Source: Blasia pusilla
Lineage: Eukaryota
DNA length: 64,000 nucleotides
Direction of reading: 5' to 3'
Assembly (NCBI GenBank): GCA_050084515.1
Contig: CM114271.1
Location: 28,706,001-28,770,000 of the forward strand
Shown here in pieces: positions 1 to 59,505 of the stretch. The notes beneath the pieces were generated by a model. The model did not search any database. It saw nothing but the letters and a program-made list of their open reading frames with translations, and was not told the DNA's origin. The position numbers were made by a program, and so were the translations under genes. The first letter of the stretch is position 1, and the number at the start of each line of letters is the position of its first letter.

Positions 1-430
1 TGTGTGATCAGGCGCTGATCGACCACCGCACAACTTCGCGAGATCATCCCGAGGTGGATGGATTAGCAGAGAGAGTTGTGCAGAAGGTGAAGAGGGGTTT
101 ACGCAAGTATGGCTTGTAGAGAGGTCACCTGGGAGATTGGGACCTCCAGTTGCCATGGTTGGCGATGGGATACAGATTCTGCAGGCAGGCATCCTTAGCG
201 TCTTTTTCATCGTACTTGCTACTTTATGTTCGAGAGCCAGATTTACCTGCGGCCATTCGTCAAGATGCTAGTGAGGTGTTGGACCTTGATGACCCTGATG
301 TATGGATGCAAGCATGTTCTCAGAATGCTGAGTTATTTCGGAGAGTGATGCCCATGGCGTTCGAGAACTTGGCGATTGCGCAACATCGGGATACGTTGAG
401 GTATGCGACTATTCGGGGTGGTGGTTATTG
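1..430 (+). mobile_element. Ty3/gypsy integrase C-terminal fragment
   Basis: HPEVDGLAERVVQKVKRGLRKY...WDLQLPWLAMGYR...SYLLLY. Nucleotide homology to 4012-4490 and 38190-38700. Truncated at about 430. Confidence 0.85.
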
Positions 431-456
431 ACCAACTAAAGATTTCATGAATTTGA

Positions 457-3672: not shown

Positions 3673-4860
3673 TCATCTGGGATACATCCATCGTCCCTGA
3701 GGAACCCTAGTGAGTGGTGGCGTCAAACATGCCATATGCCATCCTCTTGAACACCTATCATAGACTACCATAGTGGCTGCACCACGGGCGGAACCACACA
3801 ACATACACCGCAAGCCTGCAGAAACTATTGCTAAGCTCGGATTAATTATACTGTCAATGTTTGGAAGATGACATGGCGCAGAGTTACGCACATGGTCCTT
3901 CCAAACCATACCATCGCGTCCCTCCAATAAGAGAACACTGGATGGCAAAACCTCACGCACTCTCAAGATGGTGCGCCTTGCAGTCACATCCAACATCGTG
4001 GATGCCGTCTACTATAAGTAGACATAGTCTCCTTGATGAAACCTCCGGATATTAGGTTGATAACAACCTCCTCGAATAGTCGCATACCTCAATATATCCC
4101 GATGTTGCGCAATCGCCAAGTTCTCAAATGCCATGGAGATCACTATCCAAAAGAACTCAATCCTCAGAGAACATGCTCGCATCCATACATCAGGGTCATC
4201 AAGGTTCAACACCTCACCAACATCTGGACGAATGGTGGCTGGTAAATCTGGCTCTCGACCATAAAGCAACAAGAACGGTGAGAAAGACGCTAAGGATGCC
4301 TCCATGCTAAATCTGTATCCCATCTCCAACCATGGAAACTAAAGGTCCCAATCCCCTATGTGACCCCTCTACAAGCCATACTTGTGTAGTCATCTCTTCA
4401 TTGTCTGCACAACCCGCTCCGCTAGTCCATCCGCCTCAAGATGATCTCGCGAAGTAGTGCGGCGGTCGATCAGTGCCTGATCACACAAGGCTTAAAACTC
4501 CCCGCGGAACTCTATACCTTGGTATGTCAACAACTTAGCTGGTACGCCATAATGACTCAACACTTGATCTAGGGAGGCATACACTACTCCCTCACGTGCT
4601 TTGTCAAGCAATGCAACCAACTCTATCCACTTCGAGAAGTGCTCGACCATGACCAATACATAACAACTATGGCGCTCCGTCAAAAGAAAAGGTCCTGCAA
4701 AATCCAAACTCCATCTACAATCTAAACCCATGATCCGAAGTGGATGCAACTGTGGAGTCGGAGCATTGAACGATGCTCAGACTTGATCACACACCATGCA
4801 TGTGGCAACAAATTGCTGAACGTCAGTCTGCATGCCTCGCCCTCAATATTGAATCTTGAG
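3673..4860 (-). mobile_element. Ty3/gypsy integrase core plus C-terminal PHD finger (fragment)
   Basis: WSLDFAGP...VMVEHFSKWIELVAL...YGVPAKLLTYQGIEF; C-terminal CMLCGS...DRCSRGWHMACLTPPLTRVPQGRW (PHD). Stops and frameshifts. Confidence 0.85.
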
Positions 4861-5018
4861 AACTCCATCATCGTTCGAAAAAATCTTGTCCTTAATTACA
4901 TCCGAAGGAAACTCGGAACTGTACATTTGATCTATTCTATGAATTCTTTTGCCTCGTCATCAAATAAATCCCTACTCCAAAATGCTGCACTCGAGCTAGG
5001 TCTTTGAGTTCTTTGAAC

Positions 5019-33946: not shown

Positions 33947-36900
33947 AATGGTAAATGGTAAATGGTAAATAGATCAAGCCCGTGGGACCCAAAGGGTTTA
34001 AAGGCTGAAAACCACATTACAAGTCATTCATTCACTGATCCGGAAAAAGATCCTAAAGACCTTCTCCTCGCTACTGCCTAGAGCACTTGAGCGATGAATA
34101 ATGACATCCATAATATTACAATCATAAGGCACAAGTTGTAGTAAAGAATAGAAATTCTCCACATCTATTTTATGAGCTAGTCTAATCTATTCATACCTTG
34201 GATATGTAACAAACACATGCTCTTCATCCTCAATATTTTCTCCGTCACATAACCTACAAATTCGTTCACATAACCTACAAACCATCATCCTTCCTCAATT
34301 CCTAGCCTATGAGACTCAGTTCTATGTCGTGCGATAATATGATGTAAGAACGTGGAGATCCCCGCAAGTAGGTATCCTTGTTCACAATATACAAGCATAG
34401 GATTAACATGAAGTTGATAATACTCCATTTTGGTGCCCGGGCTGCTCAAAATAATATTGAGAAATTTCTTCTGTACATGCTCATGGAGTGCCATGGGTTT
34501 CAAGTCCCAATATATCCCGTTCCACCACATTCCACTTTGAAGACCAAGTCACCACATCTTCAATCCACCCTATGGACCGTGTGGCTCGCAAAGCTAGATG
34601 ACGCAAGCGAGAAACATCAAGAGATCTTACCCTTGCGATGTAAGTGATGGTCAAGTAAAGAGCTTCAGCCTCTAGAGGAAGACAACCTGTTTCCGCAAGA
34701 AGAAGAGCATGAGGAGTTTGGTTTCTTACACCCAATTCTTCTTGTAAAAAGATCTTTTGCACCCTCTCCACGTGCTCCCAACCTGTCTTCTTACAACTAG
34801 GACCTCAAACTTGGGTCCCATATAAGACCACCGGCAACACTAAGCTCCTAAATAAGAACTTCCTAAGACCCCAAGACAAAAGATGAGCTCTTCTACACCG
34901 GTTTAAAAAATGAATATAGAGCTTTGTAACCAGCTTCTATTCTCTTTTGCACGCAAGTGCCCAACTATAGTCATGAGAGAAATCGATGCCTAGATATTTG
35001 TAACTCTTCACTTGTTCTAATTGTAGACCTTTGTAAAAGAACGAGAACTTGGATCTAGTACCCACTATAATGACTTTAGACTTCTCCATATTAACCTCCA
35101 TCTGATTTTGGGTACAAAACCTTGCCAAAGTATCGAGGTGTTTTTTTAAACTAATACCATCACGTGCTAGTAATATGATATCATCTGCATACAATAGAGC
35201 TTTGATGACAAAGTCCCCAAGCTTGACACCTTCACTATCACATTCCTCCAACCACTTTTCGATATCATCTATGAAAACTCCAAAGAGAGTAGGGGAGAGA
35301 GGGCAACCTTGAATGACTCCGATGGTACTCAAGATCTCTTGAGTTTGTGAACCGTTGATCTTGGCCCCAACGGAATGGTATAACGTGGCCACGGCTGCTA
35401 GGAGATTTGGTGGTACTCCAATGGCTTGCATCCTTTCCCATAAGAGCTTACGAGGTATAGTATCAAAAGCTTTCTTGAAATCGATGAAGCCGCAAAACAA
35501 ATCTTTTCCATTGCCCTTAGATTTCTCCCATAAAACACGCAAGGCCAAGATATGGTCGATGGTGTTGTATGTTGGGCAAAAACCAGCTTTGACTCGTGCT
35601 CTCTTTTGGAAAGACTCTGTCCATGCGCTCAACTTTGACTCCACCAATTTCCCAAACAGATTGGTAAAAAAACTACCCACCATGATAGTACAATAGTTTG
35701 TCACCAAGTGCTTCCTTTCTGATTTGTGAATAGGAACAATCTCCCATAGCGATTAGGTTGAAGGAAAACCATAGATAGCAGCATCACCCAATACTTTGGT
35801 GAGGATCGGTCCAATAAAATCTCCTCCCCACTTGAAAAGTTCAATAGAAAGACCATCCAAATCCTCACATTTACCATTTGCTAATCTTCTTAGTTGAGTC
35901 ATCACCTCTGCTTCAAAGAATAAGCCAGGTATTCCTTCACAACGTGGCAAAGATGTAGCGTCGGGGAAGAAATAGAGCTTTTCGGCAAAAGATTTCAAAG
36001 ACTTGGGATCAAGAGTAGGTTTTGAAGACTGTACTACTAACCGTCTCCAAAAATGATTTGGGGTCCTCATGCAGCTCCCTTGTCAAGGACTCTTGCTTCC
36101 GCCGCAAGAAAGCTCATTTCTTAGATTTCACCAAGTCTTTGTAAAGGCTCGTCATAATAAGCCGATTTTGGATATCCAAAGATTTATCAACTGATCTTGC
36201 CCTTGCTTGCTTGCATTCCGAGTCAAACTACCCATTACAAGGCAGCCTCCTAGCACTTCTCTCCATGTGCCGCAAAAAGAACTTAGATGCAGTGTTGTTG
36301 AGCACTTTGGTTAATTGCAAACTTGCCGTGTGTGGATCTGGGCTCCATACAATGCGAGTCAAGAGTTCTTGTAAATATAGCGTATAAGGATATTTTTTAC
36401 CAGGATCTAAGCAAAACTTGGGAGAAGCTAAAACAGATTGACATGTCGAGAGAGGAATTTCCTTTGAGAGTGAGAGAGTAAACAAAAGAGGTGCCTGATC
36501 AGATTCAGGCTGAGGTTCTAGAATATCAAATGTAGAGATAAGGGAGCTATTAGCGGGCGAGGACAGAAGATAATCGATGGTGCTAGCGCCGGTAGAGGAG
36601 AAACACATATTGGGAGTTGGGAAAATGAGAGGTTCCATTAAGAACTTTCAAATTACAAGTGGCTCCAAGGGTTAAAAAATGCTCTGTCAAAGGATTTATA
36701 GAAAGATCTGAAGAGATTCTAGACCACAAACCATCCTCATGTTCTTCGAGAAGAGGAGAAGTCAAGGAATCACTGAATGGGTGAATTGAGCAGTACGTGT
36801 GCGAGCCTTGAAATCCCCAACTAGAAACACTTCACCTTTGCTTTGATATTTGAGAACATCCCCAATAAGTCGATGGAACGGTTGACTTCGATTATAAGTG

Positions 36901-38062
36901 CGTGTTGAGTAGATAGGCATGGACAGTGGTGCAAAATAACAAACTGCCAAATAACAATAAGATCCCCCAACCAAACCAAGACGTAGCCAATGATATTGGC
37001 CCCCGATATCTTGATCTTCTAGATGTATGAGAGGTAGAAATTGAGACCTGATGAAAGTAGCAATACCGCCATAACCCCTTCTTGCCCGTTGGCTTCTTTG
37101 GTTCCGTGTCGATCCCACCAAAGTAAACCCTTGCATCTCTGCAATAATATTGCTCTCATGTTCCCAAGTCTCCACAATATTGATGATGTCCGCCATCTCC
37201 CAAATTGGTCGAGCACTCACATACTTTGTTGTTGAAAGCCCTCGTATATTCCACATCAACACTCTCAGCTTCTTGGATTGCTAGGTTGATAACTCTCTTT
37301 TTCTCTGGGTAACAATTGCTAGACCATCGCGTAGATAAGCAATAAAACGTGCTTCTTGAGCCTCTTTGACCTTTGCAAAAACCTTTCTTCTAGCTTCGAC
37401 TTGTAGAGGTGTGAGATCAGGATCCAACCATATCCTCCGGCCTTTGAGAATGGCCTTATTAGCCATGGCAGTATCACGTTGAGTTTGATCAACAAACTTA
37501 ACTAGAATGGCACGAGGTTGTGTTCTCGCTTTCCCAATACGGAAAGCTTGAGCCAAGTCTAGGTTATGAACATGAAGTGTATCAACCAAGAACTTGGTGA
37601 CAACACTCTTCACCTCTGCGCTCTCTGTTTCTGCCAGACCTGAGATTCTCACATTCTTTCTACGGGCAAATTAGTTTTCCTTTTCTATCTCTTGCTCTTG
37701 ACAAAAAGAGATATGAGCAACCTTTGTAGCTTCAGCATAAGATTTCATTTTCACTTTGAAAGTTTCAACAACCTCATGCAATCCAGGACTATTGGGAGTA
37801 GTCGCTAATGATGATGCCTTCTCTTGAACATCCGCAACAGATTTGGAAAGATCGAGCATCACACTAGAACTATCTTTCAACACTTTCTTCAAAACCTCTT
37901 GCGTTGCCTTCAACTCTCGGATTTGAATATATGCAAGGTTTAATTGAGAAGTTTGTACCTTGAATTCTTGTCGAAGCTCTTTCAATTCATGCAAGACCAC
38001 TTGCACTAGATTCAAGATTTTGTCTTGAGTAGTCATCATGTAGTCGACTTCACAACATCCCA
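33947..38062 (-). mobile_element. RTEX-like LINE copy B, near full coding length, decayed
   Basis: ORF1 coiled coil plus RRM-like region (AFRIGK...PRAILVKF...IWLDPDLT). APE (WNIRG, GDF, STIDY). RT LLYADD. C-terminal CCHC finger (HRLGIEEG...EEHVFVTC). (GGTAAAT)3 tail on the plus strand. Confidence 0.9.
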
Positions 38063-38188
38063 GATATTGCACGACGTCCAATAAAGTATAACCGAATCTC
38101 CAACACCACACAACTTCTGCTCTAGAAGTTGGTTGTACTTGAAATTCTCAGAGCTAGGACGCCTCTTGACACTCCACGTTGTCTCTAA

Positions 38189-41100
38189 ATCTCAGCTTCA
38201 ACATCGTGGGTGCCGTCTGCTGCAAGTAGACATAGTCTCCTTGATGAAACCTCTAGATAGTAGGTCGATAACCACCTCCCCGAATAGTCGCATACCTAAA
38301 CGTATCCCGATGTTACGCAATCGCCAACTTCTCAAACGCCATGGGCATCACTCTCCAAAACAGCTCAACCCTTTGAGAACATGCTCGTATCCATACATCA
38401 GGGTCATCAAGGTTCAACACCTCACCAAAATCTTGACAAATGGCCGCAGGTAAATCTGCTCTTGGCCATAAAACAACAAGTACGATGAGAAAGATGCTAA
38501 GGATGCATGCTTGCTGAATCTATATCCCATCGCCAAGCACGGCAACTGAAGGTCCCAATCTCCTAGGTGACCTCTCTACAAGCCATACTTTTGTAGTCCT
38601 CTCTTCACCGTCTGCACCACTCGCTCCGCTAGTCCATCTGCCTCTGGATGATCTTGCAAAGTAGTGCAGTGGTCGATCAGTGCCTCATCACACAAGGCCT
38701 GAAACTCCCCTCGAAACTATGTACCCTGGTCTGTCAACACCTCAGCTGGTGTGCCGTTATGACTCAACACTCGATCTAGGAAGGCATAGCTACTCCCTCA
38801 CTTGCTTTGTCAGGCAACGCAACCAACTCTATCCACTTCAAGAAGTGCTCGACCATCACCAACATATAACGACTATGGCGCTTCGTCAAAGGCAAAGGTC
38901 CTGCAAAATCCAAACTTCATCTATAACCTAAACCCATGATCGAGAGTGGATGCAACTATGGAGTTGGAGCTTTCAACGATGCTCGAACTTGATCACACAC
39001 CATGCATCTGGCAACAAACTGTTGAACGTCAGTCTGCATGCCTTGCCACCAATACTGAATCTGGAGCAAGCTGTACGTCTGCTTCACTCCAAAATGACCC
39101 AACTCCTCGTGGGCATGACGCACCAAACGTGCTCTCTACGAAGGATGAGGCAATACACGCACTCTACCATCCTCCCACACTCGCAATACATGTGTGCCCT
39201 CCCACCAGAATCGTCTGGCTCACTGTAGGATCCGATCCCGCTCTCTAGCACCTATTGTGCTCGCGACGCTGCTAGTAGGTAGATACTCCAAGACTACTCC
39301 ATCATCATGAATATCTCGGCCACAAGACTACTCCATCAACATGCTTCAATTTGTGTGCAACATGAAAGTACGCCCCATGATCGGTTTCTTGAAGATGGGC
39401 GGGGATGTTAATCTATCCTTGAGCAACTGAAATACTCGCTCTTGCTCATCCCCGCAGTGCCACTCATGATCCACCTTGGTCAGCAAGGTCAGTGGCTTTG
39501 CAATCGAACTAAATCCCTTGACGTACCGCCAATAGAAGTTCGCCAATCCCATGAATGCACGAACGCGGCTCACATCTGTAGGGCGTGGAATGCGTGAAAT
39601 AGCCTCTACCTTCGTCTGCTGAACACGAAGGCCACCTAGGTATATTGTATGACCCAAGTACTAAATGTGGTCGTAGAAGAACTTACACTTGCCTGGATGT
39701 AGCTTCAGCCCATGTAACTGCAATCGTCAAAACACCTCCTCTAGATGTCGCTCATGCTCTTTAACCATGGCACTAAAGACTACGATGTCATCAATATAAG
39801 ACCCAGCAAAATCCAGACCTGCCAAGATCCTATCCATGACCCTCTGAAACTCATCCGGGGAATTCTTTAACCCAAATGGTAAGAACCGCCACTAGTACAA
39901 ACAATCCTTCCCGTGAGGATTGATGCCCCAAAATGCCGTCTTTTGCATGTCCTCCAATCTGGTAGGCAATTGATGGTATCCGACTCGCAAATCCAATGAA
40001 CTAAAGACCTTTTTGTGACCAATTGCATCAAAGATCTCCTCAAGAGTGGGCATGGCATACCTATCGAACTTCATCTGCCGATTGATAGGTTGGTAATCCC
40101 CACACATCCGCCTACCCGTCCAGTTGCCATGCACATCCTTCTTGGCAGGCATGACAATGACAGATGTATACTCCCCATGCAATATCTCCACTAGTCCTGC
40201 TCCAACCAAGTCCTGGCTCCTACTGTGAATCAGAGCCCTCTCCATATCATTGTACCTGTAGGGTTGTCGGAAGATCTGCGCATCACTCGACAATTCAATG
40301 CGGATCCCTGGTCCCTTTAGAGTACCTAAATCCTCCATGCTAAACGCAAAGCAGCTCCTATAACTCCTAAGGAACTGATGTATCCGGCGCTGCTCTTCTC
40401 CTGTCAACTTAGGGCCCATATCTGGCTCCCAAGTCTCCATCGTGACTAGGGAAGGACTCTCCGGCGTGGGTATCGATGGTTGCTATGGTGCAACCCCGTC
40501 TCAAACACCAACACTTGACCGCTCTCCTGCAACCAAATGCAAACTCTGATCTCCTCCACATGGAGTGCCCGTAACCACGCTCCATGTTATGGCTATCATC
40601 TCCTGGCGTACCTGCAAAACATCTCAAGAAGTCCAAGGGTGTCTCTCCCGATCTTCCCTGGTGTGTCGATCTCCTTGGGTCTCGCCCCCAGCCACTGCCT
40701 CCACCATCTCGGTAGGCATGGGGCTCACCAACGCAACCGCTGTGATCTGTCGCGATCTCATCCGACGCTGCTCAGCCACTCCCAAGCTAAAGATCCATGT
40801 CAAGCAGTTCAGGTCCATCGCCTAACCCAAGACATGGTGTCATGATGCCTCTGACAGTGACGGTACTGCCGTCACTCCCGTGGGAAATCCCATCGCCCGC
40901 TTTCTCTCGTCGGCGTTGGGCTCCACCAACCTCTGAACCTGGTCATCCCAAACCAAGCCAAGACCGGCCTCCTTGTATGCCTAGGAAGCGGAAAAACTCA
41001 CAAACGTGAGAAAGGCTACCCGCGGCCGACCTACCCTGTTGACTAGAGTCAACGGCGGTTGATCATCGTGCCTCACTGCCAATGATCGATGACCCGGATC

Positions 41101-44100
41101 CAGAATGAAATCCACTAACAAGTGGGAGGGGCGCTCCACTCTTGCATACGCCCTCCGCAACACCTCGTGTGGTACCATGTTGGTCCACCATAGACGCGGG
41201 CGATGTGCTCCGTAATCCACACTCGCCGCATCCAAAACTAAAGCTGGGCCGATCCAGGCACGCATCTGATGTGCACTCGTCACCACCCGTGACCCTAAAT
41301 CGCCCAAGATCGGTACATTCTCCAGAATGTAAGCCAAAGAACGGGACTAATGCTCTTGCAAATATCTCAAGACCCTCAGCATCTCCCAAAATATCCTAGA
41401 TCGAGTGTCAGCCAACTTGATGCCTTGTCCAGCACTCGATTGACGGTGACATGGCCAACCTGCAATGACCAAATCAATGGTCCCTACTCGCTCCAAATCC
41501 TGCGCCCCCAGCAACGAAATATCCCTCGGTAGGGAACTCTGGTACCCCTGTACCGCGAACGTAGATAATAAGTTGGGAAAACGTAGGCGTAACTACGCCA
41601 CATGTCATAGTGAGACGTGCCTTGCAACATCATCACTCTCCATATACAGGTACTGATGCACTCGCACTCTTGCTTGCAAAACAACAGCTAACCCGGTGCT
41701 AATCCCTCCAAAGAGATCTAACACCTGAATATCCTCCTCCAGAATACGCCACACAATGGGTGTGGTATCCAAGGGTGTCATCGTAGTCCTCCTTGGTACC
41801 TCGGGTTCCTCAGACCCATTACGCTCCGATGCAAACGCCTCGCTCCACGCGGTCTGCACGTGCTCATATGCCAATTGTCGAAGCTCCTCAATCAAGCCCC
41901 AAAGTGGCACCTCTCCTCCACGGAATAATACGGCTACCATAACACTCCTTTCCATAGAAATTTCATGAACATGAGTATCCTCTGCATGGACATGTCCCTC
42001 AATCAAATCACTAGGCCAAGTGATGGCACTGCTAAATGCTGCTAAGGTCGCCACCTCTCCTGGCCGTCGCTCGATCACTGCACCTGCGAATCGAACGGGT
42101 AATGAGCTAAGGCGCCCATCACCTGAGTGCCATCCTGGTCTGTAGGACGCTGACTCCTCCCAGTAGTCGAGGGAAAATCCCATCGGGTATAACACTGCTC
42201 CACCAACCAAGACGTCGTAGGACTCTGCAGCAGTCACTATTGCCTTGGCTCGCACAACAGACTTATTGGTAGGATGTCCCAAGAAAATCCTCACCACGAC
42301 CTCCTGTCACGTGATATACTATGTGGACTCACTCCACCCATGGATGTCTGTATTCGAAATGGACAACGCTCCACATCAGCTCTCGTCAAGCCCAATCCTC
42401 TGATTGACGCTTTCCCCAACATCAAGGATTACGCTCCTGAATCCAACAAGACGCGATGTGGACTAAAAGCTCTACCTCCGGGACTCACCAACTCGAAGAC
42501 CTCTCCTTGATTATCCAACAACTCAACACTAGGAGAAGCCATGGCACCCTCTATGGCGGGTCTAGCGGGCATCTCCGCCATCCTAGCAGCCGCAGCCTGC
42601 CATCAATTTGCCTAGTCTATTTTTTGGCTTCCCTTCGTTGTGGATCCAACTCTACAGCTGCTCCATGCGTCACAACTGCCGTGGCCTCCATTTGGGCAAC
42701 CGTGCACATCCAACCAGGATCCTCCATATCTGTGGCTGCTCAATATGATGCCGATACCACGGATCCAGCATCGGGTAATCTCAATGGCATAGCGGCAATC
42801 TGCTCCTGTAGCTGTTGTCTCTAATCAGCCATCCCAACCTCATGTCTGGCGTCTCCCTCGGCGCGTCTAGGTGGTGGTACTCTACCTCCTCCATGGGCAG
42901 CTCCACCACCATGTCGGGAAACTCCAGCTCCTTGTCCCCCAACTGGACCACCTGATGCACGATCTCTAGCCCACCCGGACCGGCTACTCGCTTTGGTGCC
43001 CTCTATGGCCCTCGGTCGAGACGTAACTCAGGATGTAAACTGAAACACATGGCGCGTGTATGACCATACCTCTGAAAATAGTCATATTGATAACCTCCTA
43101 GTGCAGCACCATCTCCTCCTCCATATTGAGGCACACGTCCATGACCCTGACGAGTGCAATCGCGCTGATAATGGGCTCCACCACATGACCAACAAGTAAT
43201 AGTATGTAGCTACTGCTGAGCCGCATATGAAGGCGCAAGTCTCTGTGGCACGGCCTCCCGGTATCCTCTCTCAGCTCGTGGTCCCACAGTCGACCTATCT
43301 CGAAGTCCACGTTGCTGCACAGGTGGTGCAGACAATCGTGACTACTCTCGCCCAGAACCCATGGTGGCTACGCTCTCCTCCGCCATGTTGCGCTCAATAT
43401 TCTCGGCGGTCCTAAAAACGTCTCTCAACGTATGGGAGGTGTTCATAAGAAGCACCTCCTCCCATACCCGTGCCCGCATGATCCGGTCCAGCATCACGTA
43501 CCATGTCTGGATAGCCTGAGCCTCTGTCACCCCCTGAGTGACGTTGATCAACCAACGCAAGCGAGTATAAGCCTCACACAAACTCTCACCCGGGCGCCTC
43601 TAGAAGTCGTAGATACTCCGCAACTTCCCCGTCCGTAGCCCCTGGTAGCTCGCCCTCAACTCAATAAAGAACTCAACCATAGGGTTGAACCTGGGACAAA
43701 CCCGACTAGAGGGTGCAACTGCTCCAGCGCGAGTGACCCCTCCTAAAACATCATTGGTGGAAGAGGAAGTAGCCTCTCTTGACTCTTCCTCCTCATCAGG
43801 GAACCGCTCCGTCCATGACATATAGTGTGGGTCATAGTAGAGTCGCCATGCCTCAATCTCCTAGGCATATCTGTTGGAGAACTCATGGTAATCGTCCATG
43901 GGCGCCCCCTCTAAATGTTGGAACATACCAATCCATGTTGTATACGGGTTGAATTATCTAGAGTTCTTAGCCCACTATGAGTCACACCAACTCCTAAACT
44001 CCGCAATGAAGTCGTGTAGCTCTATAGTGCCTACATCACCGGAAAACCGACATGGTCTTCTACCCCGGTCGTCCATCTCGTACGTCCAACTGGTAGGACC

Positions 44101-44300
44101 ACTCAATCTGTGGGTCACTAACACAATCCTCTATATGCTCCCCTCGTCTGAAGACGACAGAGAAAGAGATCGAGGTGGTCTCTCACGTGAAGACCCTCGA
44201 AACCTCGCACCACTCCGCGTAAACCCTCCAGAGCTACTCTCAGGTCCACTACCTCGCCTCTCAAAATCCTGAAAGGATGCCGTGATGGCCCTCGTGCCCC
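38189..44300 (-). mobile_element. Ty3/gypsy retrotransposon internal region: gag-PR-[C5 DNMT]-RT-(RH partly deleted)-IN
   Basis: gag at about 44120-43340, zinc knuckle at about 43040-43095, protease LLDSGA at about 42440, RT YIDD at about 39790, integrase at about 39180-38190. LTRs not identified. Confidence 0.88.
40785..41735 (-). pseudogene. DNMT3-like C5 cytosine methyltransferase domain within gypsy pol
   Basis: I VLDLFGGISTG; II YMESD; IV IDLVIAGWPC (about 41450); VI ILENV; VIII AHRPRLWWTNM; IX ERKRAMGFPTGVT; X RHHVLG*AMD. Frameshifts and stops. Confidence 0.88.
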
Positions 44301-45851
44301 TCGTGCCCCTCTCACATGATCACTCTCAATCTTGCGAGTAATCCCTCAATCACTCAAACTAAACATGCGGCACTCAATCTACACTCTCTCACTCAGACGT
44401 GTGTTGTGCGGCAACAAGCAGCGTGGTGCGGCAAATCACTGATCTATCGTCTCATCGACAAACCATCCTCAACTCTGGACGTCCCACACAGGTCTATGTC
44501 CCCAAAACCCATAAATCATCAATGCTCCTACCATCAACAAAACAACACACAAAACCCAATATCCCAAATAACTTCCCAATATTCGAAAATCCCTCATACG
44601 TGCAGGATAAGAGACCAGAATGGGTAACCTGACAATAATGTCGATGTCGCTCCTCGGCAATTGTAAATCTCGACTCCAACTCGGTCGTGAAGACAACTCC
44701 TCCAATCAGAAAGTCGTATTCCTCTCATACTGACGCTGCTCAACCTCCTCGATGTGCGGTGCAAGTCGAGCGGTCCGGTGCGGCACTAGCGGCACGCAAC
44801 GGCTACAAACAACACGGCACTCGGGAATGGGGTGCGGCACTCGGCGGCATATCCTCCTCAATCAGAAATTCACACACTCTGCTCCTTAGTGAAGGAGCGG
44901 TTCCGCGATCGAGACGATGCGGTGCGGCCACGACCGGCACGGCGCAGCAACCGACGGCGCGTTGCAGCTATGGGTGTCACGGCACGGTACTCGATCGTCG
45001 TCGAGCGGCTACCAATCATAACATAGCAACATGAAATCAAAACTCAAACACCATAACCCGAGGTCATCTGCCATCACTCGTTGATGATGAAACTGCGATG
45101 ATAGCGGCGGCCAAAACAAAGTATGTGGTGGCGACGCAAGTCAGAGAATCAACGAACGTCATGGAAGACCCTCCACTCCGTAATGGCGGAAATAGCAACC
45201 AAAGGGTGGACAACGGACGATAGATCGTTGACGGTAACGGTTGACCATTGCTGGTGATAGTTGACCGTTGACGGTGATGGTTGACCGTCGATGGCGGACC
45301 GTTGGCGATTACTGCAGCCGGCTTGGCGGCTGATTTAGGGTTTGAACAATTTAACCCTAAAAATCGCCTAGCAATGGAAGTTTTGCAAGATTGACCCTAA
45401 ACTTTTTGCTTGCAACTCCAAATTCCAAATGGTTTGTTGCACAGTGTGTACAGTTTCACGATCTACGACAGCGTTAAAAAATATTTTTAATCGGACATTC
45501 CAGTAAAAATTGACAGGGACCGTTGTAAAGCCCAATGTCTTTTCCTCCTACACAAAATTTGGCAGCGCTTCCGCTCTGATTTCTCCCAACAAAAATGAAA
45601 AACCTATAAAAATACAAATGAGCAAGCTACATGGTGCTTCTGAGAGCACCGGCATGGGGCAACCCACCCTCATAATCAATCCCTATCAAAAATTGGGCAG
45701 CGCTTCCACTCTTCCCCACTAAAAATCGGCAAATGCAAAGAACAATCAAAGCAGCCCTTGCTCCGGTGAGCACTCCCATGAGCCGCTGAACATGGAACAC
45801 GGTCCCCAACCTCCAAAAACAGCAAGTGACCAGCGAGCTCCCCCATAAAGC

Positions 45852-48800
45852 TCAATATTCTGGAGACTTCGGAACATAAGAGCAATACTATTGCATAGAT
45901 GCAAGGTTTACTTTGGTGGGATCGACACGGAACCAAAGAAGCCAATGGGCAAGAAGGGGTTATGGCGGTATTGCTTCTTTCATCAGGTCTCAATTTCTAC
46001 CTCTCATACATCTAGAAGATCAAGATATCGGGGGCCAATATCATTGGCTACGTCTTGGTTTGGTTGGGGGATCTTATTGTTATTTGGAAGTTTGTTATTT
46101 TGCACCACTGTCCATGCCTATCTACTCAACACGCACTTATAATCGAAGTCAACCGTTCCATCGACTTATTGGGGATGTTCTCAAATATCAAAGCAAAGGT
46201 GAAGTCTTTCTAGTTGGGGATTTCAATGCTCGCACACGTACTGCTCTATTCACCCAATTCAATGATTCCTTGACTTCTCCTCTTCTTGAAGAACATGAGG
46301 ATGGTTTGTGGTCTAGAATCTCTTCAGATCTTTCTACAAATCCTTTGACATAGCATTTTTTAACCTTCGGAGCCACTTGTAATTTAAAAGTTCATAATGG
46401 AACCTCTCATTTTCCCAACTCTCACTCCAATATGTGTTTCTCCTCTACCGGCGCTAGCACCATCGATTATCTTCTATCCTCGCCCGCTAATAGCTCTCTT
46501 ATCTCTACATTTGATATTCTAGAACCTCAGCATGAATCAAATCATGCATCTCTTTTGTTTACTCTTTCACTGTCAAAGGCAATTCCTCTCTCGATATGTC
46601 AATCTATTTTAGCTTCTCCCAGGTTTGCTTAGAACCTGGTAAAAAATATACGCTTCATTTACAAGAACTCTTGACTCGCATTGTATGGAGCCCAGATCCA
46701 CACACGGCAAGTTTGCATCTAACCGAATTGTTCAAAAACACTGCATCTAAGTTCTTTTCGCGACACAGGGATAGAAGTGCTAGGAGGCAACCTTGTAATG
46801 GATGGTTTGACTCTGAATGCAAGCAAGCAAGGGCAAGATCAGCCGATAAATCTTTGGATATCCAAAGTCGGCTTATTATGACGAGCCTTTACAAAGACTT
46901 GGTGAAATCTAAGAAACGAGCTTTCTTGCAGCGGAAGCAAGAGTCCTTGACAAGGGAGCTGCATGAGGACCCCAAATCATTTTGGAGACGGTTAGTAGTA
47001 CGGTCTTCAAAACCTACTGTTGATACCAAGTCTTTGATATCTTTTTCCGAAAAGCTCTATTTCTTCCCCGACGCTACATCTATGCCACGTTGTGAAGGAA
47101 TACCTGGCTTATTCTCTGAAGCAGAGATGATGACTCAACTAAGAAGATTAGCAAATGGTAAATGTGAGGATTTGGATGGTCTTTCTATTGAACTTTTCAA
47201 GTGGGGAGGAGATTGTATTGGACCAATCCTCACCAAAGTATTGAGTGATACTGTTATCTATGGTTTTCCTTCAATTTGGTCGCTACGAGAGATTATTCTT
47301 ATTCACAAATCAGGAAGGAAGGACTTGGTGACAAACTATCGCACTATCATGGTGGGTAGTGTTTTTGCCAAGTTATTTGGAAAATTGGTGGAGTCAAAGT
47401 TGAGCACATGGACAGAGTCTTTCCAAAAGAGAGCACGGGTACAAGCTGGTTTTTGCCCAACATACAACACCATCGACCATATCTTGGCCTTGCGTGTTTT
47501 ATGGGAGAAATCTAAGGGCAATGGAAAAGCTTTGTTTTGCGGCTTCATTGATTTCAAGAAAGCTTTTGATATTGTACCTCGTAAGCTCTTATGGGAAAGG
47601 CTGCAAGCCATTGGAGTACCACCAAATCTCTTAGCAGCCGTGGCCACGTTATACCATTCCGTTCGGGCCAAGATCAAAGGTTCATAAACTCAAGAGTTCT
47701 TGAGTACAATCGGAGTCATTCAAGGTTGCCCTCTCTCCCCTACTCTCTTTGGAGTTTTCATAGATGATATCGAAAAGTGGTTGGAGGAATGTGATAGTGA
47801 AGGTGTCAAGCTTGGGGACTTTGTCATCAAAGCTCTATTATATGCATATGATATCATATTACTAGCACGTGATGGCATTAGCTTACAAAAACACCTCGAC
47901 ACTTTGGCAAGGTTTTTGTACCCAGAGTGAGATGGAAGTTAATATGGAGAAGTCTAAAGTCATTATAGTGGGTACTAGATCCAAATTCTCGTTCTTTTAC
48001 AAAGGTCTACAATTAGAACAAGTGAAGAGTTACAAATATCTAGGCATCGATTTCTCTCATCACTATAGTTGGGCACTTTGCGTGCAAAAGAGAGTAGAAG
48101 CTGGTTACAAAGCTCTATATTCATTTTTAAACCGGTGTAGAAGAGCTAATCTTGTGTCTTGGGGTCTTAGGAAGTTCTTATTTAGGAGCTTAGTGTTGCC
48201 GGTGGTCTTATATTGGGACCCAAGTTTGGGGGCCTAGTTGTAAGAAGACAGGTTGGGAGCGCGTGGAGAGGGTGCAAAAGATCTTTCTACAAGAAGAATT
48301 GGGTGTAAGAAATCAAACTCCATATGCTATTCTTCTTGCGGAAATAGGTTGTCTTCCTCTAGAGGCTGAAGCTATTTACTTGACCATCACTTACATCGCA
48401 AGGGTGACATTTCTTGATGTTTCTCGCCTCCCTCATCAAGCTTTGCGAGCCACACGTTCCATGGGGTGGATGGCGGATGTGGTGACTTGGTCTTCAAAGT
48501 GGAAAATGGCGGAATGTGATTGGGACTTGAAACTGATGGCACTACGCGAGCATCTACAGAAGTAATTTCTCAACATTATTTGGAGGAGCTTGAGCACCAA
48601 AATGGAGTTTCATCAACTTCATGTTAATCCTATGCTTGTATATTGTGAGCAAGGATACCTACTTGCGGGGGTCTCCACGTTCTTACGTCATATTATCGCA
48701 CGACATAGAACTGGGTCTCATACGCTAGGAATTGAGGAAGGACGATGGTTTAATATCAATAGAAGTGAACAAATTTGTAGGTTATGTGACGGAGAAAATA

Positions 48801-49080
48801 TTGAGGATGAAGAGCATGTGTTTGTTACATGTCCAAGATATGAAGAGATTAGACTAGCTCATAAAATAGATGTGGAGAATTTCTATTCTTTACTACAGCT
48901 AGTGCCTTATAATTTAGGTTGTTATATTAGGGACGTCATTGTTCATCGCTCAAGTGCTCTAGGCAGTAACTAGGAGAAGGTCTTTAGGATCTTTTTCTGG
49001 GTCAGTGAATGAATGACTTGTAATGTATTTTTCAGCCTTTTGACCCTTTGGGTCCCACGGGCTTGATCTATTTACCATTT
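45852..49080 (+). mobile_element. RTEX-like LINE copy C, 5'-truncated within the endonuclease
   Basis: GDFNAR, GWFDSEC, DFKKAFD, QGCPLSP, ICRLC...EEHVFVTC; ends gcttgatctatttaccattt. Confidence 0.9.
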
Positions 49081-52000
49081 AATCCTCAACTAGTTCAATT
49101 ATCAGCTTTGCATCACCTGCCAGTCCTTGCCCTTGGTAAAACTACATGCCCATTATCTGTTACATCATATTTAGGTACATGTATCCACTTTTGCTATGAG
49201 CAATTACTTACACCATTTCAGACCATGTCAGTCTACATCGGAACTTCATTTTGTCATAGAAAAAAATGTATTTCCAAAATCTCTTCATTTCTATTCCAAT
49301 CAGTTCCTCGAATGCTAGTGTGTTAGGATTCTCATGGGTTTGGCTCATTCTTGCAGCCTCTTTTTCAGATCTTCTTGAATTCGATGCTTGCCCATTCCAT
49401 GCTTTGAGAACAACAAGCTCATGAAGGCATCTCTATGCACACAGTATTCTGTCCAACACACTCCACTCAATTTTTTGTTGTTTATTAATACAAGAGAAAT
49501 CACATTGAATGTCCATATGTCCATTCTATATTTCTTTTACTGGTTTTGTAGCACAAACTCCCACTTGTGCATTTCTAGCATAGTTATCAAAGTGTTACAC
49601 TTCTTTTGATTCTTTCCTATTCAAATCAATTGCTATGACATGCCATTTGAGCTCTGTGCTCCGCAAGCTACTCCACCGCACCTCAGCTTTACTACATAAC
49701 TACATCCATTTACTACTTGCAGAGAACTTTCACCCCACCTTGCGCATCCACTATTCTCTGTGCACTGCAAATCACAAAGCAGCTTCCAATCTTTATCAAC
49801 TTCGTGACAATATTATCAGAACAAATAATGTGAACTATAGAGACAAATTCAGAATACCATCTATGTACCATGACCAACTATCTGAAAAAAACATGTTATT
49901 ACCCGGATGATGTTTCCTTCAATTCCAACTTCATATAATCTATTTTCTTAGCAGCTGCCTACCAAATGAACACATGTATATTTGAGAACCAAAAGAATCT
50001 CACTACAGAAAGCCAAGGCATTGTTGCGCCGTTACTTTATTACAGGGCCTCCAATAGCACCCATCTACCTCATGTCAATGCCTTACTAGTTCATTCATCT
50101 TCTCTTATCTCATATTTCCGCTCCTATGAGCCTCGTTATTAACTTAGCAATCCTAGGCCACACCCAATATAATTTTATATCCCACAAATTTTCAAACAAA
50201 CTTGCATTCCAATATGGATACCAATGGCATGCCGTTTTCTACTTTTACAATTACCATTATCATTATAATTACAACCATTTTGTACTTTCCACAATATTAA
50301 TCACACTACTTAGGCGGCATTCTTGTTTTATAAGTGGCCCTGCGTGTTCTCCGGTCACTGAATTCGGGCCGTGAGGCTACGTTTTTTGTGCACTTGGGAT
50401 GAGGCCCTAAGGTAGCGGCGAATTTTCTTCGTGGGGTTTGATAGCTGAAGTGTCTATCATAAAGTTGTTTCGGTGCAACTTCAAGCCCTAAATTCCATCC
50501 TGTCAACAGTCTGACTTCATTTGCGATACTTTATTGCAGGCAACGGGTCTCCATAGCTTTGCAACGTGCCCAAGAAAATGGGCTTTTGGTTGGAGACGCC
50601 AATGTTAGAGGCCCACTTAATAGTAGCCATAATTTTGTAGGTGTTCTCATGTGACAATTTTGGTCGTTATGTCTCTTAGGGGCGGTTTTGGCTCTTGGGG
50701 TTTTTAGTTTTCTATGCCCCTCTTCGTATCCCGATGGGTTTCCATCCTATTTTTATTTATGTTTTATATTTCACTTTCCTGTCAACGGTCATGTAGTGAC
50801 CGTTGACAGGAAAATGAAATGTGACGTGACCGTTGTTGAACGGGTCATTAGTTACCGTTGTAGAATCCCATACAGCGGTTGCCGAGAATCGATCGACGAT
50901 AAACATGCAAGTATACGGCTAAACCAGTCGGTGCCCTTGGTCTGCACGCGTGAAAAAAGCCTATAATAATTTAACTAAACTATAAGGGATCTTTGTTCCG
51001 AGATCCCTGCGACAGTGTGACTAATAATATTCTAGTAGATGTTGCTAATAATATTATAGTAATTGATGTGACAGTAAACTATGAAGAAAAAAATTGAATT
51101 GGCGCTTGAGATCAAAATGTCAACCTTTCTCTTCAACCTTTCTCAGTCAAACGCAGGGGACTTACATCATTCCGGTCAATGGGAAGGTGGTGGTGCTATT
51201 GGTATGTTATATTTGAATGAGGAATAACTATCCGTTCCAGACCTATCCATCTCACCGATAGGAGTTTCCTCAAGCATTTGTTCCTCCTTTCACCAAACTC
51301 ATTGAAGCCTTGCTACAATCGAATCTCCAGTAGTGAGGGTTGGGAACGCACACAGATTGAGGATTCTCGAGGAATCACGAAGTATCCAAACTGCTTTGCG
51401 CGCGAGCAGAGTCGAGCGGAATTGAGGAGCCAAAAACGTTTCCACGGGTTTATCGTATTATAGAGTAGGGAGTGCAGGATATACAAACCTACAGGTTACA
51501 TCTTGAATCCCAGCAGGCATTGTTAATGTCAGTCCCCGATGGAATCTCGCTACTTACTAATTAAATTTGCAGCTAATCTCAGATGACTACTTTTCGACAT
51601 CAAGAACGCGATAAGCATGTGAGTTTGTCGTGTGTGCCGATTGTTGGAAAGCCCTTGAGAACAGTCATGAAATGTGTCGTAGAGTCCCGTCGTCCCGGAC
51701 ACTTTCTGCCTCACGTTGTGATGCATGCTTGCCTTGGAGGATGAATGTGAGGGAAGTCATCACATCATAGGATAGCCAACGTGCGATAGCCGGATTTCTG
51801 CTGGCATTTCGTGGTTCATGGGATTGTGAGTTCTTACCTCGCTAGGAGCTGATGAAGTAAGTCCGAAATGCAACGAAGGCAGTTTCGTGCTAAAGCTCGC
51901 ATCGTAACACTAAAAGCGGGCGGTCAATTGATCGCATGGGGATCATTTTCAATCACCTTTTAGCCTGCACCTAGATCGAGCCTAGTTAGTATAGATCATT

Positions 52001-57615: not shown

Positions 57616-59505
57616 AATTGGTAATTGGTAAATAGATCAAGCCCGTGGGACGCAAAGGGTCAAAAGGCTGAAAAACACATTACAAGTCATTCATTCACTG
57701 ACCCTGAAAAAGATCCTAAAGACCTTCTCCTAGCTACTGCCTAGAGCACTTGAGCAATGAATAATGACGTCCCTAATATAACAACCTAAATCATAAGGCA
57801 CTAGCTGTAGTAAAGAATAGAAATTCTCCACATCTATTTTATGAGCTAGTCTAATCTCTTCATACCTTGGACATGTAACAAACACATGCTCTTCATCCTC
57901 AATATTTTCTCCGTCACATAACCTACAAATTCGTTCACTTCTATCAATATTAAACCATCGTCCTTCCTCAATTCCTAGCCTATGAGACCTAGTTCTATGT
58001 CGTGCGATAATATGACATAAGAATGTGGAGATCCCCGCAAGTAGGTATCCTTGTTCACAATATACAAGCATAAGATTAACATGAAGTTGATAAAACTCCA
58101 TTTTTGTGCGTGGGCTGCTCCAAATAATGTTGAGAAATTGCTTTTGTAGATGCTCGCGGAGTGCCATCGGTTTCAAGTCCCAATCGCATTCCTCCACATT
58201 CCGCTTTGAAGACCAAGTCACCACATCTGCCATCCACCCTATAAAATGTGTGGCTCGCAAAGCTTGATGAGGGAGGCAAGAAACATCAAGAGATCTCACC
58301 CTTGGGATATAAGTGATGATCAAGTAAAAAGCTTCAGCCTCTAGAGGAAGACAACCTGTTTCTACAAGAAGAATAGCATAAGGAGTTTGGTTTCTTATAC
58401 CTAATTCTTCTTGTAGAAAGATCTTTTGCACCCTCTCCACGCGCTCCCAACCTGTCTTCTCACAACAAAGGCCCCAAACTTGGGTCCCATATAAAACCAC
58501 CGGCAACACTAAGCTCTTAAATAAGAACTTCCTAAGACCCCAAGACACAAGATGAGCTCTTCTACACCGATTTAAAAATGAATATAGAGCTTTGTTACCA
58601 ACTTCTACTCTCTTTTGCACGCAAAGTGCCCAACTATAGTGATGAGAGAAATCGATGCCTAGATATTTGTAACTCTTCACTTGTTCTAATTGTAGACCTT
58701 TGTAAAAGAACGAGAACTTGGATCTAGTACCCACTATAATGACTTTAGACTCCTCCATATTAACCTCCATCTGATTCTGGGTACAAAACCTTGCCAAAGT
58801 GTCGAGGTGTATTTTTAAACTAATGCCATCACGTGCTAGTAAGATGATATCATTTGCATACAATAGAGCTTTGATGACAAAGTCCCCAAGCTTGACACCT
58901 TCACTATCACATTCTTCCAACCACTTTTTGATATCATCTATGAAAACTCTAAATAGAGTAGGGGAGAGAGGACAACCTTGAATGACTCCTATGGTACTCA
59001 AATTCTCTTGAGTTTGTAATCTTTGATCTTGGCCCGAACGGAATGGTATAACGTGACCACAGCTGCTAGGAGATTTGGTGGAACTCCAATGGCTTAGAGC
59101 CTATCCCATAAGAGCTTATAAGATACAGTATCAAAAGCTTTCTTGAGATCGATGAAACCGCAAAACAAAGCTTTCCCATTGTCCTTAGATTTCTCTCATA
59201 AAACACGCAAGGCCAAGATATGGTCAATGGTTTTGTATGTTGGGCTAAAACCAGCTTGGACCCGTGCTCTCTTTTGGAAAGACTCTGTCCATGTGCTCAA
59301 CTTTGACTCCACCAATCTCCCAAACACCTTGGCAAAAATACTACCCACCATGATAGTACGATAGTTTGTCACCAAGTCCTTCCTTCCTGATTTGTGAATA
59401 GAAACAATCTCCTGTAGCGACCAGGTTGAAGGAAAACCATAAATAGCAGCATCACCCAATACTTTGGTGAGGATCGGTCCAATACAATCTCCTCCCCACT
59501 TGAAA
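57616..59505 (-). mobile_element. RTEX-like LINE copy D, 5'-truncated, inserted into the transposase
   Basis: 423-aa RT/CCHC ORF 57730-59001; GGTAA(A/T)T tail. TCAATTG occurs at both junctions; the empty site is at 63745-63777. Confidence 0.9.

Follow-up and report, generated by a model that had tools for sequence, protein, structure and literature searches.

Retrotransposons bearing their own cytosine methyltransferase are a rare case in which the arms race between host and transposon is inverted, the transposon carrying the very enzyme normally used to silence transposons, and they have so far been described from dinoflagellates and one charophyte alga. The dinoflagellate systems SymbioDIRS-Dnmt3 and SymbioLINE-Dnmt resemble the element analysed here in being retrotransposons that carry cytosine methyltransferases, but they belong to other classes, DIRS and LINE. 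KnitGypsy-Dnmt3 of the charophyte Klebsormidium nitens (de Mendoza et al. 2018, PMC5890265) is a Gypsy-type element which, compared by its description in the accessible part of that paper, shares with our locus a non-permuted DNMT3-type domain in the Gypsy Pol ORF of a streptophyte with conserved key catalytic residues, its purpose being left unexplained, and which differs in having DIRS-like repeats whereas our copy shows no terminal repeats. No K. nitens sequence was among the homologues retrieved. The hosts differ as well: the carriers reported here are bryophytes, whereas the accessible part of PMC5890265 reports none, Physcomitrella merely being a surveyed species there, and the names Marchantia and Sphagnum have 0 occurrences in the accessible text and supplements. 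EpiLTRs, as far as the available part of the preprint describes them (bioRxiv 10.64898/2026.05.21.726589), are likewise retrotransposons with a cytosine methyltransferase but theirs is DNMT4-related and accompanied by a chromodomain and an adenine methylase.

In the 64,000-nucleotide stretch of DNA analysed here (the window), an original prediction had placed a complete DNMT3-like methyltransferase between the protease (PR) and the reverse transcriptase (RT) of a self-methylating LTR element. We conclude with a probability of roughly 0.85 that this element is a pseudogenised, 3'-truncated Ty3/Gypsy-type retrotransposon containing a DNMT3-type domain between protease and RT in Pol.

Structure of the element and its methyltransferase domain

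The features of the element copy, from its 5' side, are as follows.
44062..45851, minus strand: region 5' of gag, possibly LTR or 5' UTR (no partner repeat)
43021..44061, minus strand: gag with zinc knuckle (CWSCGGAHYQRDC), pseudogenised (tblastn; knuckle from the translation)
42297..42841, minus strand: gag-PR junction and N-terminal half of the aspartic protease (LLDSGA) (tblastn)
41725..42354, minus strand: C-terminal half of the protease (YDVLVGGAVLYPMG, 42219-42178) and linker, in frame with the DNMT (tblastn)
40735..41742, minus strand: DNMT3-like C5 cytosine methyltransferase domain with six in-frame stops (Pfam PF00145, PDB profile search)
41724-41692, minus strand: motif I, VLDLFGGISTG
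41466-41428, minus strand: motif IV, IAGWPCHRQSSAG
41334-41311, minus strand: motif VI, AYILENVP
41205-41179, minus strand: motif VIII, HRPRLWWTN
40908-40882, minus strand: motif IX, ERKRAMGFP
40833-40792, minus strand: motif X, VLG*AMDLNCLTWI
40453..40734, minus strand: DNMT-RT linker, conserved in relatives (..PW.SWDV..) (alignments; tblastn HSPs to 40612)
39181..40452, minus strand: RT (YIDD, 39801-39772) and RNase H in the DNMT frame, with stops (Pfam, PDB)
38199..39135, minus strand: integrase (IN), zinc-binding domain and then core in two further frames (Pfam, tblastn)

The gag region is recognised by tblastn with residues 9-370 of the Marchantia proteins P0013 and P0018 (40-44% identity, E 1e-71 to 1e-75), and no Pfam gag family matches it at E<=0.01. 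At the gag-PR junction the HSPs lie in frames -1 (42841-42611) and -3 (42584-42297), gag and pol being in frame -2, which gives at least three frame changes compared to the single ORF of the Marchantia relatives. One frame is shared by the downstream protease half, the DNMT domain and the Ty3/Gypsy RT-RNase H following it. The read-through translation matches Pfam RVT_1 (2.3e-26) and RT_RNaseH_2 (0.0071; 16.8 bits, under the 29.8-bit cut-off), the best PDB match of the RT is Ty3 RT (6.2e-45), and RT-RNase H shows 57.5% identity to Marchantia P0012 (tblastn). That the domain lies in a Gypsy-type pol, after PR and ahead of RT, is thus borne out by tblastn, Pfam and the Ty3 RT match, and a DNMT3-type domain within the RT-RNase H ORF, which defines the Gypsy-DNMT3 elements of K. 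nitens, is found both in the window read-through and in P0012. The integrase region extends over frames -2, -1 and -3 (tblastn), with Integrase_H2C2 recovered in two Pfam scans (4.8e-18 and 1.4e-17) and rve at 18.5 bits, below its cut-off. It is cut by a LINE at 38198/38199: homology to another copy at 3991-4860 ends at 38199, where LINE homology starts. The LINE of the host suggests a liverwort-like bryophyte.

Upstream of gag, the coding strand of 44062..45851 contains four copies of TGCCGCAC, and apart from 53 nt of LINE no sequence similar to this region is found elsewhere in the window. Direct repeats of at least 40 nt are absent from 34000-50000 and no convincing ones of at least 18 nt occur in 37800-46200. 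An LTR pair, a PBS, a PPT and an intact 3' end were not found for the window copy; with up to 2 mismatches allowed, a single initiator-tRNA-Met PBS motif matched twice, away from the element in both cases, where chance predicts 4.9 matches. The predicted LTR element therefore holds as a Gypsy-type pol (PR-RT-RH-IN, Ty3-type RT) and not as a structure with LTR pair and intact 3' end, the designation 'LTR retrotransposon' deriving entirely from pol homology. As the 3' end is cut at 38199, the lack of LTRs in this copy is silent on the family.

C5 methyltransferases are marked by the motifs I (FxGxG), IV (PC), VI (ENV) and VIII (RxR), followed by IX and X. In the window, motifs I, IV, VI, VIII, IX and X are arranged in linear order on the minus strand (41724-40792), at the positions that had been predicted, and the protease-side ORF (42306-41605, 233 aa) indeed runs into motif I. 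A Pfam search had been proposed on a frameshift-corrected translation; the plain read-through reaches 28.5 bits against DNA_methylase (PF00145, cut-off 22), with no correction being needed in this single frame, and of the separate ORF pieces 1/11 scanned reaches the cut-off (41592-41347, 29.1 bits). The domain is interrupted by six in-frame stops (41607-41605, 41595-41593, 41349-41347, 40983-40981, 40842-40840 and 40824-40822) and no open frame able to yield an enzyme runs across it, so that the methyltransferase is complete in its motif set and not in its coding capacity: the window copy makes no enzyme. It shows 59-64% identity to 13 short homologues and has a His following the catalytic Cys, where the family has Gln in 94/101 rows.

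By PDB rankings rather than by a rooted tree, the domain is of the DNMT3 type. The family profile matches DNMT3A best (E 1.3e-13), ahead of DNMT3B, DRM (4.8e-8), DNMT2 (6.5e-6) and M.HhaI (3e-4), DNMT1 and CMT chains being absent at E<=1, and a single-sequence PDB search with the DNMT region returned DNMT3A/B/C matches only. For the intact relative P0006, the AF2 model (pLDDT 91.9) finds in Foldseek, among the matches listed, exclusively DNMT3A/B/C (E ~5e-20, target-normalised TM 0.82-0.84), the best including DNA-bound DNMT3A/B structures. The profile aligns collinearly with DNMT3A (positions 26-214 to chain 7-175 and 301-337 to 237-273). Profile and model agree with the DNMT3-like wording recognised originally, and the collinearity with the claim that the domain is not circularly permuted like DRM. 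With canonical DNMT3A/3B/3C and plant DNMT3 the domain shares the motif order, a short spacing between motifs VIII and IX (from the motif coordinates) and similar wording of motifs IX and X, and DNMT3A/B/C are its best profile and structural matches; in contrast to them, the element-family domain, only 20-24% identical, is devoid of PWWP or ADD and embedded in a retrotransposon polyprotein. To DRM there is distant homology (profile positions 24-153), but DRM is circularly permuted and matched by its C-terminal part alone (chain residues 227-350).

Relatives and domain order across the family

Homologues of the window domain comprise 26 matches at E 1e-12 to 1e-40, and all 13 that carry a species name are from bryophytes, i.e. 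nine Marchantia, three Calypogeia and one Sphagnum protein, being polyproteins in Marchantia polymorpha and shorter predicted proteins in Calypogeia fissa and Sphagnum troendelagicum. Since the nearest relatives reside in genomes of liverworts and mosses, elements of this rare kind occur in land plants as well, and the range extension that had been made dependent on the host holds whatever the host is. Marchantia polyproteins align to the window over 42354-40612 in a single frame (tblastn, E 1e-147 to 1e-175), Pfam DNA_methylase is present in 14/15 homologues scanned, and in the DNMT tree the window falls into a 14-row clade with Marchantia and Calypogeia (SH-aLRT 100). Near-identical full-length predicted proteins come from several Marchantia loci.

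This recurrence bears on whether the domain belongs to the element at all. That a processed host DNMT3 gene inserted once into this Gypsy copy, creating a locus-specific chimera, is extremely improbable: bryophytes do have host DNMT3 genes, according to the available parts of PMC6453930 and PMC10952607, and boundaries could be blurred in a degraded copy, but the domain recurs in the bryophyte proteins named above and many others, lies upstream of RT in the bryophyte proteins wherever RT is also present, continues in frame into PR and RT with no boundary, and diverges together with RT (identities in 35 polyproteins, r=0.72, reached by 0/999 Mantel permutations, shared ancestry being included in this correlation). 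Other copies lacking the domain, or insertion boundaries of its own, which would have spoken for such an event, are not what is seen, as P0012 has the domain (460-529) upstream of RVT_1 (833-919) and several other Marchantia polyproteins can be aligned without a frame change across the protease region and the DNMT domain. A host or domesticated methyltransferase gene located among TE debris, outside the element, is very improbable too. At least one Marchantia relative bears the UniRef name 'DNA (cytosine-5-)-methyltransferase' and 95/262 entries contain the domain alone ('M only'), but the latter are mostly short fragments from small contigs, RT and/or IN adjoin the domain in the other 167/262 related proteins, and in the window the domain contains six stops and is read in one unbroken frame with the PR before it and the RT after it. 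We therefore consider it very probable that the DNMT domain has long been inherited within the element lineage rather than captured recently.

The wider family includes 318 representative clusters at E<=1e-30, and the 150 representatives listed are all family members (E<1e-49). Two layouts are found: PR-DNMT-RT (A) in bryophytes and Closterium, and RT-RH-DNMT-IN-PHD (B) in chlorophytes, the order requiring one change on the DNMT tree (9 A, 35 B and 57 unlabelled rows). Proteins of the streptophyte alga Closterium have the order PR-DNMT-RT at 31-34% identity. Gypsy elements of chlorophytes and metagenomes (named hosts Haematococcus lacustris, Monoraphidium neglectum and the eukprot record Chrzof1) have a homologous DNMT (30-36% identity to the window, tblastn E 1e-37 to 1e-53), a Gypsy-type pol and a PHD finger, which follows IN as it does in a fragment in the window described below, but they differ in that the DNMT follows RNase H instead of preceding RT, in motif IV being EC where the window has PC, and in falling into a starred clade of their own in the DNMT tree. 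Across the family the catalytic Cys (101/101 rows), the Glu of ENV (100/101) and the Arg pair of motif VIII (98/101 and 101/101) are conserved, and EC replaces PC in motif IV in 54/101 rows.

Two more fragments of this kind are present in the window.
3676..4950, minus strand: second fragment, from this family or a sister family, 5'-truncated, integrase followed directly by a PHD finger (blastn, tblastn, Pfam)
1..438, plus strand: third integrase fragment of the family, incomplete at the window edge (blastn, tblastn)

The former is 86.9% identical to the element over 870 nt (blastn, 38199-39066 vs 3991-4860), aligns in one frame to P0147 residues 1202-1618 (tblastn, E 1.7e-86) and matches Pfam PHD (28.3 bits) and rve (29 bits), and the latter is 87% identical (38258-38694 vs 438-1). 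The element is laid out as gag, PR, DNMT, RT, RNase H and IN, probably followed by a PHD finger. Alternatively, the IN-PHD fragment may stem from a sister family devoid of the DNMT, and the type-A polyproteins with IN (P0145, P0350, P0354 and P0355) show no PHD. A second methyltransferase-like domain had been ascribed to a MULE in the window. It was not recovered by Pfam scans, which covered ORFs of at least 70 aa and a read-through: none of 50 ORFs of at least 110 aa gave a match, nor did 150/151 ORFs of 70-109 aa lying outside 34000-49100 or a read-through of 5001-16003 in all six frames.

That bryophytes harbour an undescribed Gypsy lineage in which a DNMT3-type domain separates protease from RT and a PHD finger probably follows integrase, being one branch of an old and very diverse radiation in the green lineage with the domain at two alternative positions in Pol, is a reading whose chances we rate slightly below even.

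Decay of the copy and possible function of intact relatives

Between 42354 and 39181 the copy contains 17 in-frame stops, all TAG or TGA and none TAA, and over these 3.17 kb no indels, with at least five frameshifts elsewhere. An aligned homologue residue exists for 15/17 stops, and 10/15 replace Arg, Gln or Trp. CpG o/e is 0.78 in the element compared to 0.54-0.58 in the flanks, and since its CpG depletion is milder than that of the flanks, a reading of the stops as methylation decay is only suggestive. The copy was disabled mainly by point mutations resembling C-to-T transitions and to a lesser extent by indels, and its 3' end was removed by a LINE. Directed hypermutation, RIP-like or deaminase-driven, in place of slow decay of methylated cytosines is an unlikely source of the stops: the exclusive use of TAG/TGA, the 3.17 kb without indels and the 10/15 stops compatible with single transitions fit it, but gag-PR and IN contain frameshifts and CpG is only mildly depleted.

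As the window copy is dead, the self-methylation originally ascribed to it is put forward as a family-level hypothesis only. We tentatively propose a model, to which we give clearly less than even chances, according to which the DNMT of intact relatives would be translated within Gag-Pol and travel with RT and IN, could methylate the element's new DNA copy or its insertion site de novo and thereby tune expression of the element or make it resemble host-methylated DNA, while the PHD finger after IN may steer integration by reading histone tails. Yeast assays in the accessible part of PMC5890265 detected de novo CG methylation by SymbioDIRS-Dnmt3 and none by KnitGypsy-Dnmt3, the one Gypsy-DNMT3 for which a test has been published, an outcome called inconclusive; human DNMT3B was likewise inactive, so the negative result says little. 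It is nevertheless compatible with a DNMT that the family has kept as a non-methylating DNA- or chromatin-binding module or as an enzyme acting on RNA or an RNA:DNA hybrid, as are the frequent EC in motif IV and the fact that DNMT2, which the profile ranks as the next class below, acts on RNA. We regard this as rather doubtful: binding alone would not demand an almost invariant catalytic Cys, ENV and RxR, and the P0006 model is best matched by DNA-bound DNMT3A/B structures.

Inert itself, the window copy is valuable for directing attention to its family. Land plants have been described as lacking such elements, a view that the relatives in Marchantia, Calypogeia and Sphagnum contradict for bryophytes. 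Should the Marchantia copies be active, land-plant methylomes would receive a contribution from transposon-encoded de novo methyltransferases. As Marchantia is a tractable model, the benefit that a transposon derives from encoding a methyltransferase can be tested there.

The methyltransferase domain within the pol frame

The DNMT3-like domain is encoded in one frame with the C-terminal half of the protease, the RT and the RNase H of a decayed Ty3/Gypsy-type copy, which confirms the original prediction of a methyltransferase lying in gypsy pol between protease and RT. In tblastn comparisons with Marchantia polymorpha polyproteins, 42354-40612 (minus strand) aligns in a single frame (50-54% identity, E 1e-147 to 1e-175), and this frame is shared by the RT-RNase H part at 40452-39337 (minus strand; 57.5% identity) and by the stop-to-stop ORFs 42306-41605, 41592-41347 and 41346-40981 (all minus strand). 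In order, it encodes the C-terminal half of the protease and a linker, then the DNMT domain; another conserved linker leads on to the RT with its YIDD motif and to the RNase H. The frameshift-corrected translation thought to be needed for a domain search proved unnecessary, the domain being in a single frame and 42354-39181 containing no frameshift. Reading through this interval with X at stops results in P0027, the translation of the window copy, with 1058 residues and 17 stops (nine TAG, eight TGA, no TAA), six of these inside the methyltransferase domain. P0027 matches Pfam RVT_1 (2.3e-26) and DNA_methylase (1.3e-6; 28.5 bits, cut-off 22). The 3.17 kb of 39181-42354 (minus strand) are also free of indels.

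Further parts of the Gypsy copy, and sister fragments in the window
44061-43021, minus strand: gag with a zinc knuckle
42841-42297, minus strand: protease N-terminal half with LLDSGA, in frames other than the main one
4950-3676, minus strand: integrase fragment running straight into a PHD finger, in one frame
1-438, plus strand: integrase fragment, 87% DNA identity to the integrase of the DNMT element

Compared with its Marchantia relatives, which have one ORF here, the protease N-terminal region shows at least three frame changes, and the integrase starts with an H2C2 zinc domain (4.8e-18) with its remainder in two further frames. The 3' end is lost: homology to one sister fragment (38199-39066 to 3991-4860, 86.9% identical) stops at 38199, and LINE sequence is found from there on. 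The other sister fragment matches 38258-38694 (to 438-1, 87%). The window copy is inert. As the fragment at 4950-3676 runs from integrase into PHD finger, the host family probably also ends in this IN-PHD module, which is the C-terminal module of the type-B elements described below as well; chromoviruses have a chromodomain at the position held here by the PHD finger. Alternatively, this fragment could derive from a sister family without DNMT.

Class of the enzyme and its place in the element family

Several comparisons place the domain with DNMT3. A single-sequence search of P0027 residues 206-393 against PDB sequences matches DNMT3A/B/C only (about 3e-7). A profile of the window's domain and nine relatives ranks DNMT3A (1.3e-13) first, followed by DNMT3B (4e-12), DNMT3C, DRM (4.8e-8), DNMT2 (6.5e-6) and M.HhaI (3e-4). 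The alignment is collinear with DNMT3A, and DRM is aligned through its C-terminal part only, as expected for a permuted enzyme. With 10 sequences, the read-through of the window copy gave a poor AF2 model (pLDDT 43.9); a 48-sequence alignment led by P0006, an intact relative sharing 62% identity with the domain in the window, was modelled in its place and reached pLDDT 91.9 and pTM 0.89. All Foldseek matches listed for this model are DNMT3A/B/C catalytic domains, with E-values down to 5e-20, target-normalised TM-scores of 0.82-0.84 and 20-24% identity. Every motif named for the original assignment across motifs I-X was found, from 41724 to 40792, and the reading as DNMT3-like and unpermuted, unlike DRM, is borne out by the profile ranking, the collinearity and the Foldseek matches.

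The original prediction had left room for a one-off insertion, with other copies of the family lacking the domain. A 121-residue piece (41346-40981) finds 26 homologous proteins with 43-65% identity, 13 of these from named hosts (nine Marchantia polymorpha, three Calypogeia fissa, one Sphagnum troendelagicum), and DNA_methylase is present in 14 of the 15 homologues scanned. The presence of the domain in Marchantia, Calypogeia and Sphagnum homologues contradicts a one-off event. One homologue, P0012, has the DNMT domain at 460-529 with RVT_1 and RNase H downstream; in another, P0023, a weak match to gag precedes the domain. HMMER with the domain profile against 1.84 billion representatives yields 5033 matches with E<=1e-3, of which 1148 reach <=1e-10 and 318 reach <=1e-30; the 150 matches listed are all below 1e-49, many being polyproteins of 1000-3400 residues. 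Judged from these sequences, the DNMT domain is part of the element family.

Two architectures can be distinguished. Among 23 long representatives, Pfam places the DNMT before the RT in two and after the RNase H in 19, where it precedes the integrase whenever an integrase is present, while two have the DNMT only; a PHD finger follows the integrase in 16 of the 23. Local domain mapping of 262 DNMT-bearing proteins assigns 15 to type A (DNMT before RT), including the window copy, two Marchantia and three Closterium proteins, 152 to type B (RT before DNMT and/or DNMT before IN) and 95 to DNMT only. The named type-B hosts are all chlorophytes, i.e. Haematococcus lacustris, Monoraphidium neglectum and the eukprot record coded Chrzof1, which we take to be Chromochloris zofingiensis. 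A large group of Gypsy polyproteins (P0140-P0361), in which the DNMT follows the RNase H and precedes the integrase and the C-terminus bears a PHD finger, comes mostly from environmental contigs, its named hosts being chlorophyte algae; some of its members also have a G-patch or Tudor domain. The type-B polyprotein P0323 carries the NCBI label of a 'Minisyncoccia bacterium' MAG and probably stems from a mis-binned eukaryotic contig.

In a quick IQ-TREE DNMT tree (LG+G4) of 101 rows, comprising all nine type-A and all 57 DNMT-only sequences that span 270 or more of the 349 profile positions, and 35 of 146 type-B sequences, the window copy falls into a 14-row clade with Marchantia and Calypogeia (SH-aLRT 100), its nearest neighbour being Calypogeia P0010 (64%). 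One change suffices on this tree to explain the type A versus type B order. DNMT and RT identities across 35 polyproteins, all from DNMT-bearing Gypsy lineages, correlate with r=0.72, with shared ancestry left in and none of 999 permutations reaching as high a value. This correlation fits a long co-inheritance of DNMT and RT as read from their sequences, rather than repeated capture.

Decay of the window copy and its surroundings

All 101 rows have the catalytic Cys; ENV retains E in 100 and N in 94, and motif VIII keeps its two Arg in 98 and 101 rows, with the W and the N behind them each present in 100. In motif IV, EC replaces PC in most type-B sequences (54 rows). The window copy retains PC, ENV and RxR and has a His at the post-Cys position where 94 rows have Gln. 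For 15 of its 17 stops a homologue residue is aligned, and at 10 of these 15 the stop replaces Arg, Gln or Trp. With ancestral codons being inferred, these ten could have arisen by transitions in a CG or CHG context (CGA>TGA, CAG>TAG, TGG>TGA/TAG), and a methylation-driven decay of the copy appears plausible. We rejected CpG depletion as proof of such decay, as the element (o/e 0.78) is more mildly depleted than the neighbouring LINEs and flanks (0.54-0.58).

The Gypsy copy is surrounded by two inverted, head-to-head copies of one LINE encoding endonuclease and RT (34000-38198, minus strand; 45852-49040, plus strand), which are 91-98% complementary to each other over 34000-37129 and 45905-49040, the left one adjoining the cut integrase at 38198/38199. 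Another RT ORF at 57733-59100 (minus strand), intact-looking and possibly of the same LINE family, has top matches of 66-80% identity from contigs and resembles a Marchantia protein (69% over a quarter of its length) and proteins of Calypogeia fissa (46%) and Riccia sorocarpa (41%). Judged by these matches, the host is probably a bryophyte of liverwort-like kind. No direct repeat pair that could represent LTRs was detected in 34000-50000, nor at lower stringency in 37800-46200; an initiator-tRNA motif had no match as a PBS near the element, and a search for tRNA genes found none. Nothing resembling the 1.8 kb upstream region was found in the rest of the window, not even beside the sister IN-PHD fragment. 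It contains a short tandem array with a GACCGTTGACGG-like unit of about 20 nt (45223-45294). The octamer TGCCGCAC occurs four times on the coding strand within about 430 bases upstream of gag (44406-44839) and elsewhere in the window only twice, on the opposite strand.

The further claim of a methyltransferase-like domain carried by a MULE found no Pfam match: no second methyltransferase was detected in 50 ORFs of at least 110 aa, in the shorter ORFs (70-109 aa) lying outside 34000-49100, of which 150 out of 151 were scanned, or in the six-frame read-through of 5001-16003. The only related match is a borderline SWIM zinc finger at 57266-56958 (minus strand; 19.5 bits, cut-off 19.6). Neither near it nor near a ubiquitin-family match at 52548-52958 (plus strand; 29.6 bits) was a MULE transposase or methyltransferase domain detected. 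The 434 aa ORF at 10953-12254 (plus strand), among the window's longest, has no Pfam match; in Atlas look-ups of the two longest unexplained ORFs, it was linked only weakly (score 0.76) with a cluster named FAR1 domain-containing, and the other gave nothing. ORF pieces at 26656-26952 and 30205-30429 (plus strand) match start and end of Pfam DUF2045 and probably represent a host gene with introns.

Possible working and distribution

The DNMT domain is encoded within Pol and conserved. We propose that it would be made within Gag-Pol, would accompany the machinery for reverse transcription and integration, and would methylate new element DNA de novo, with the PHD finger reading histone tails and thereby perhaps picking insertion sites. 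We give such self-methylation a probability of roughly one in three. In the accessible parts of PMC5890265, CG methylation in yeast is shown only for a dinoflagellate DIRS-borne DNMT3 domain, and a Klebsormidium Gypsy domain gave no methylation signal in yeast, a result its authors call 'inconclusive'. A role of the domain other than DNA methylation is considered unlikely.

A Gypsy element with DNMT3 domain was described in 2018 in Klebsormidium nitens; the accessible text and supplements of that report (PMC5890265) mention neither Marchantia nor Sphagnum. The accessible parts of PMC12344493 ('streptophytes (Gypsy-DNMT3)'; one supplement without match) and of bioRxiv 10.64898/2026.05.21.726589 (Gypsy-DNMT3 in 'streptophytes') leave bryophytes unnamed. 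Within the full-text literature, excluding preprint supplements and subscription journals, we found no description of a bryophyte Gypsy-DNMT3 lineage or of a chlorophyte RT-RH-DNMT-IN-PHD lineage. The window's feature belongs to a known kind, a Gypsy element with DNMT3 domain as first described in Klebsormidium nitens, and the extension of its range to land plants is independent of the host of the window copy.
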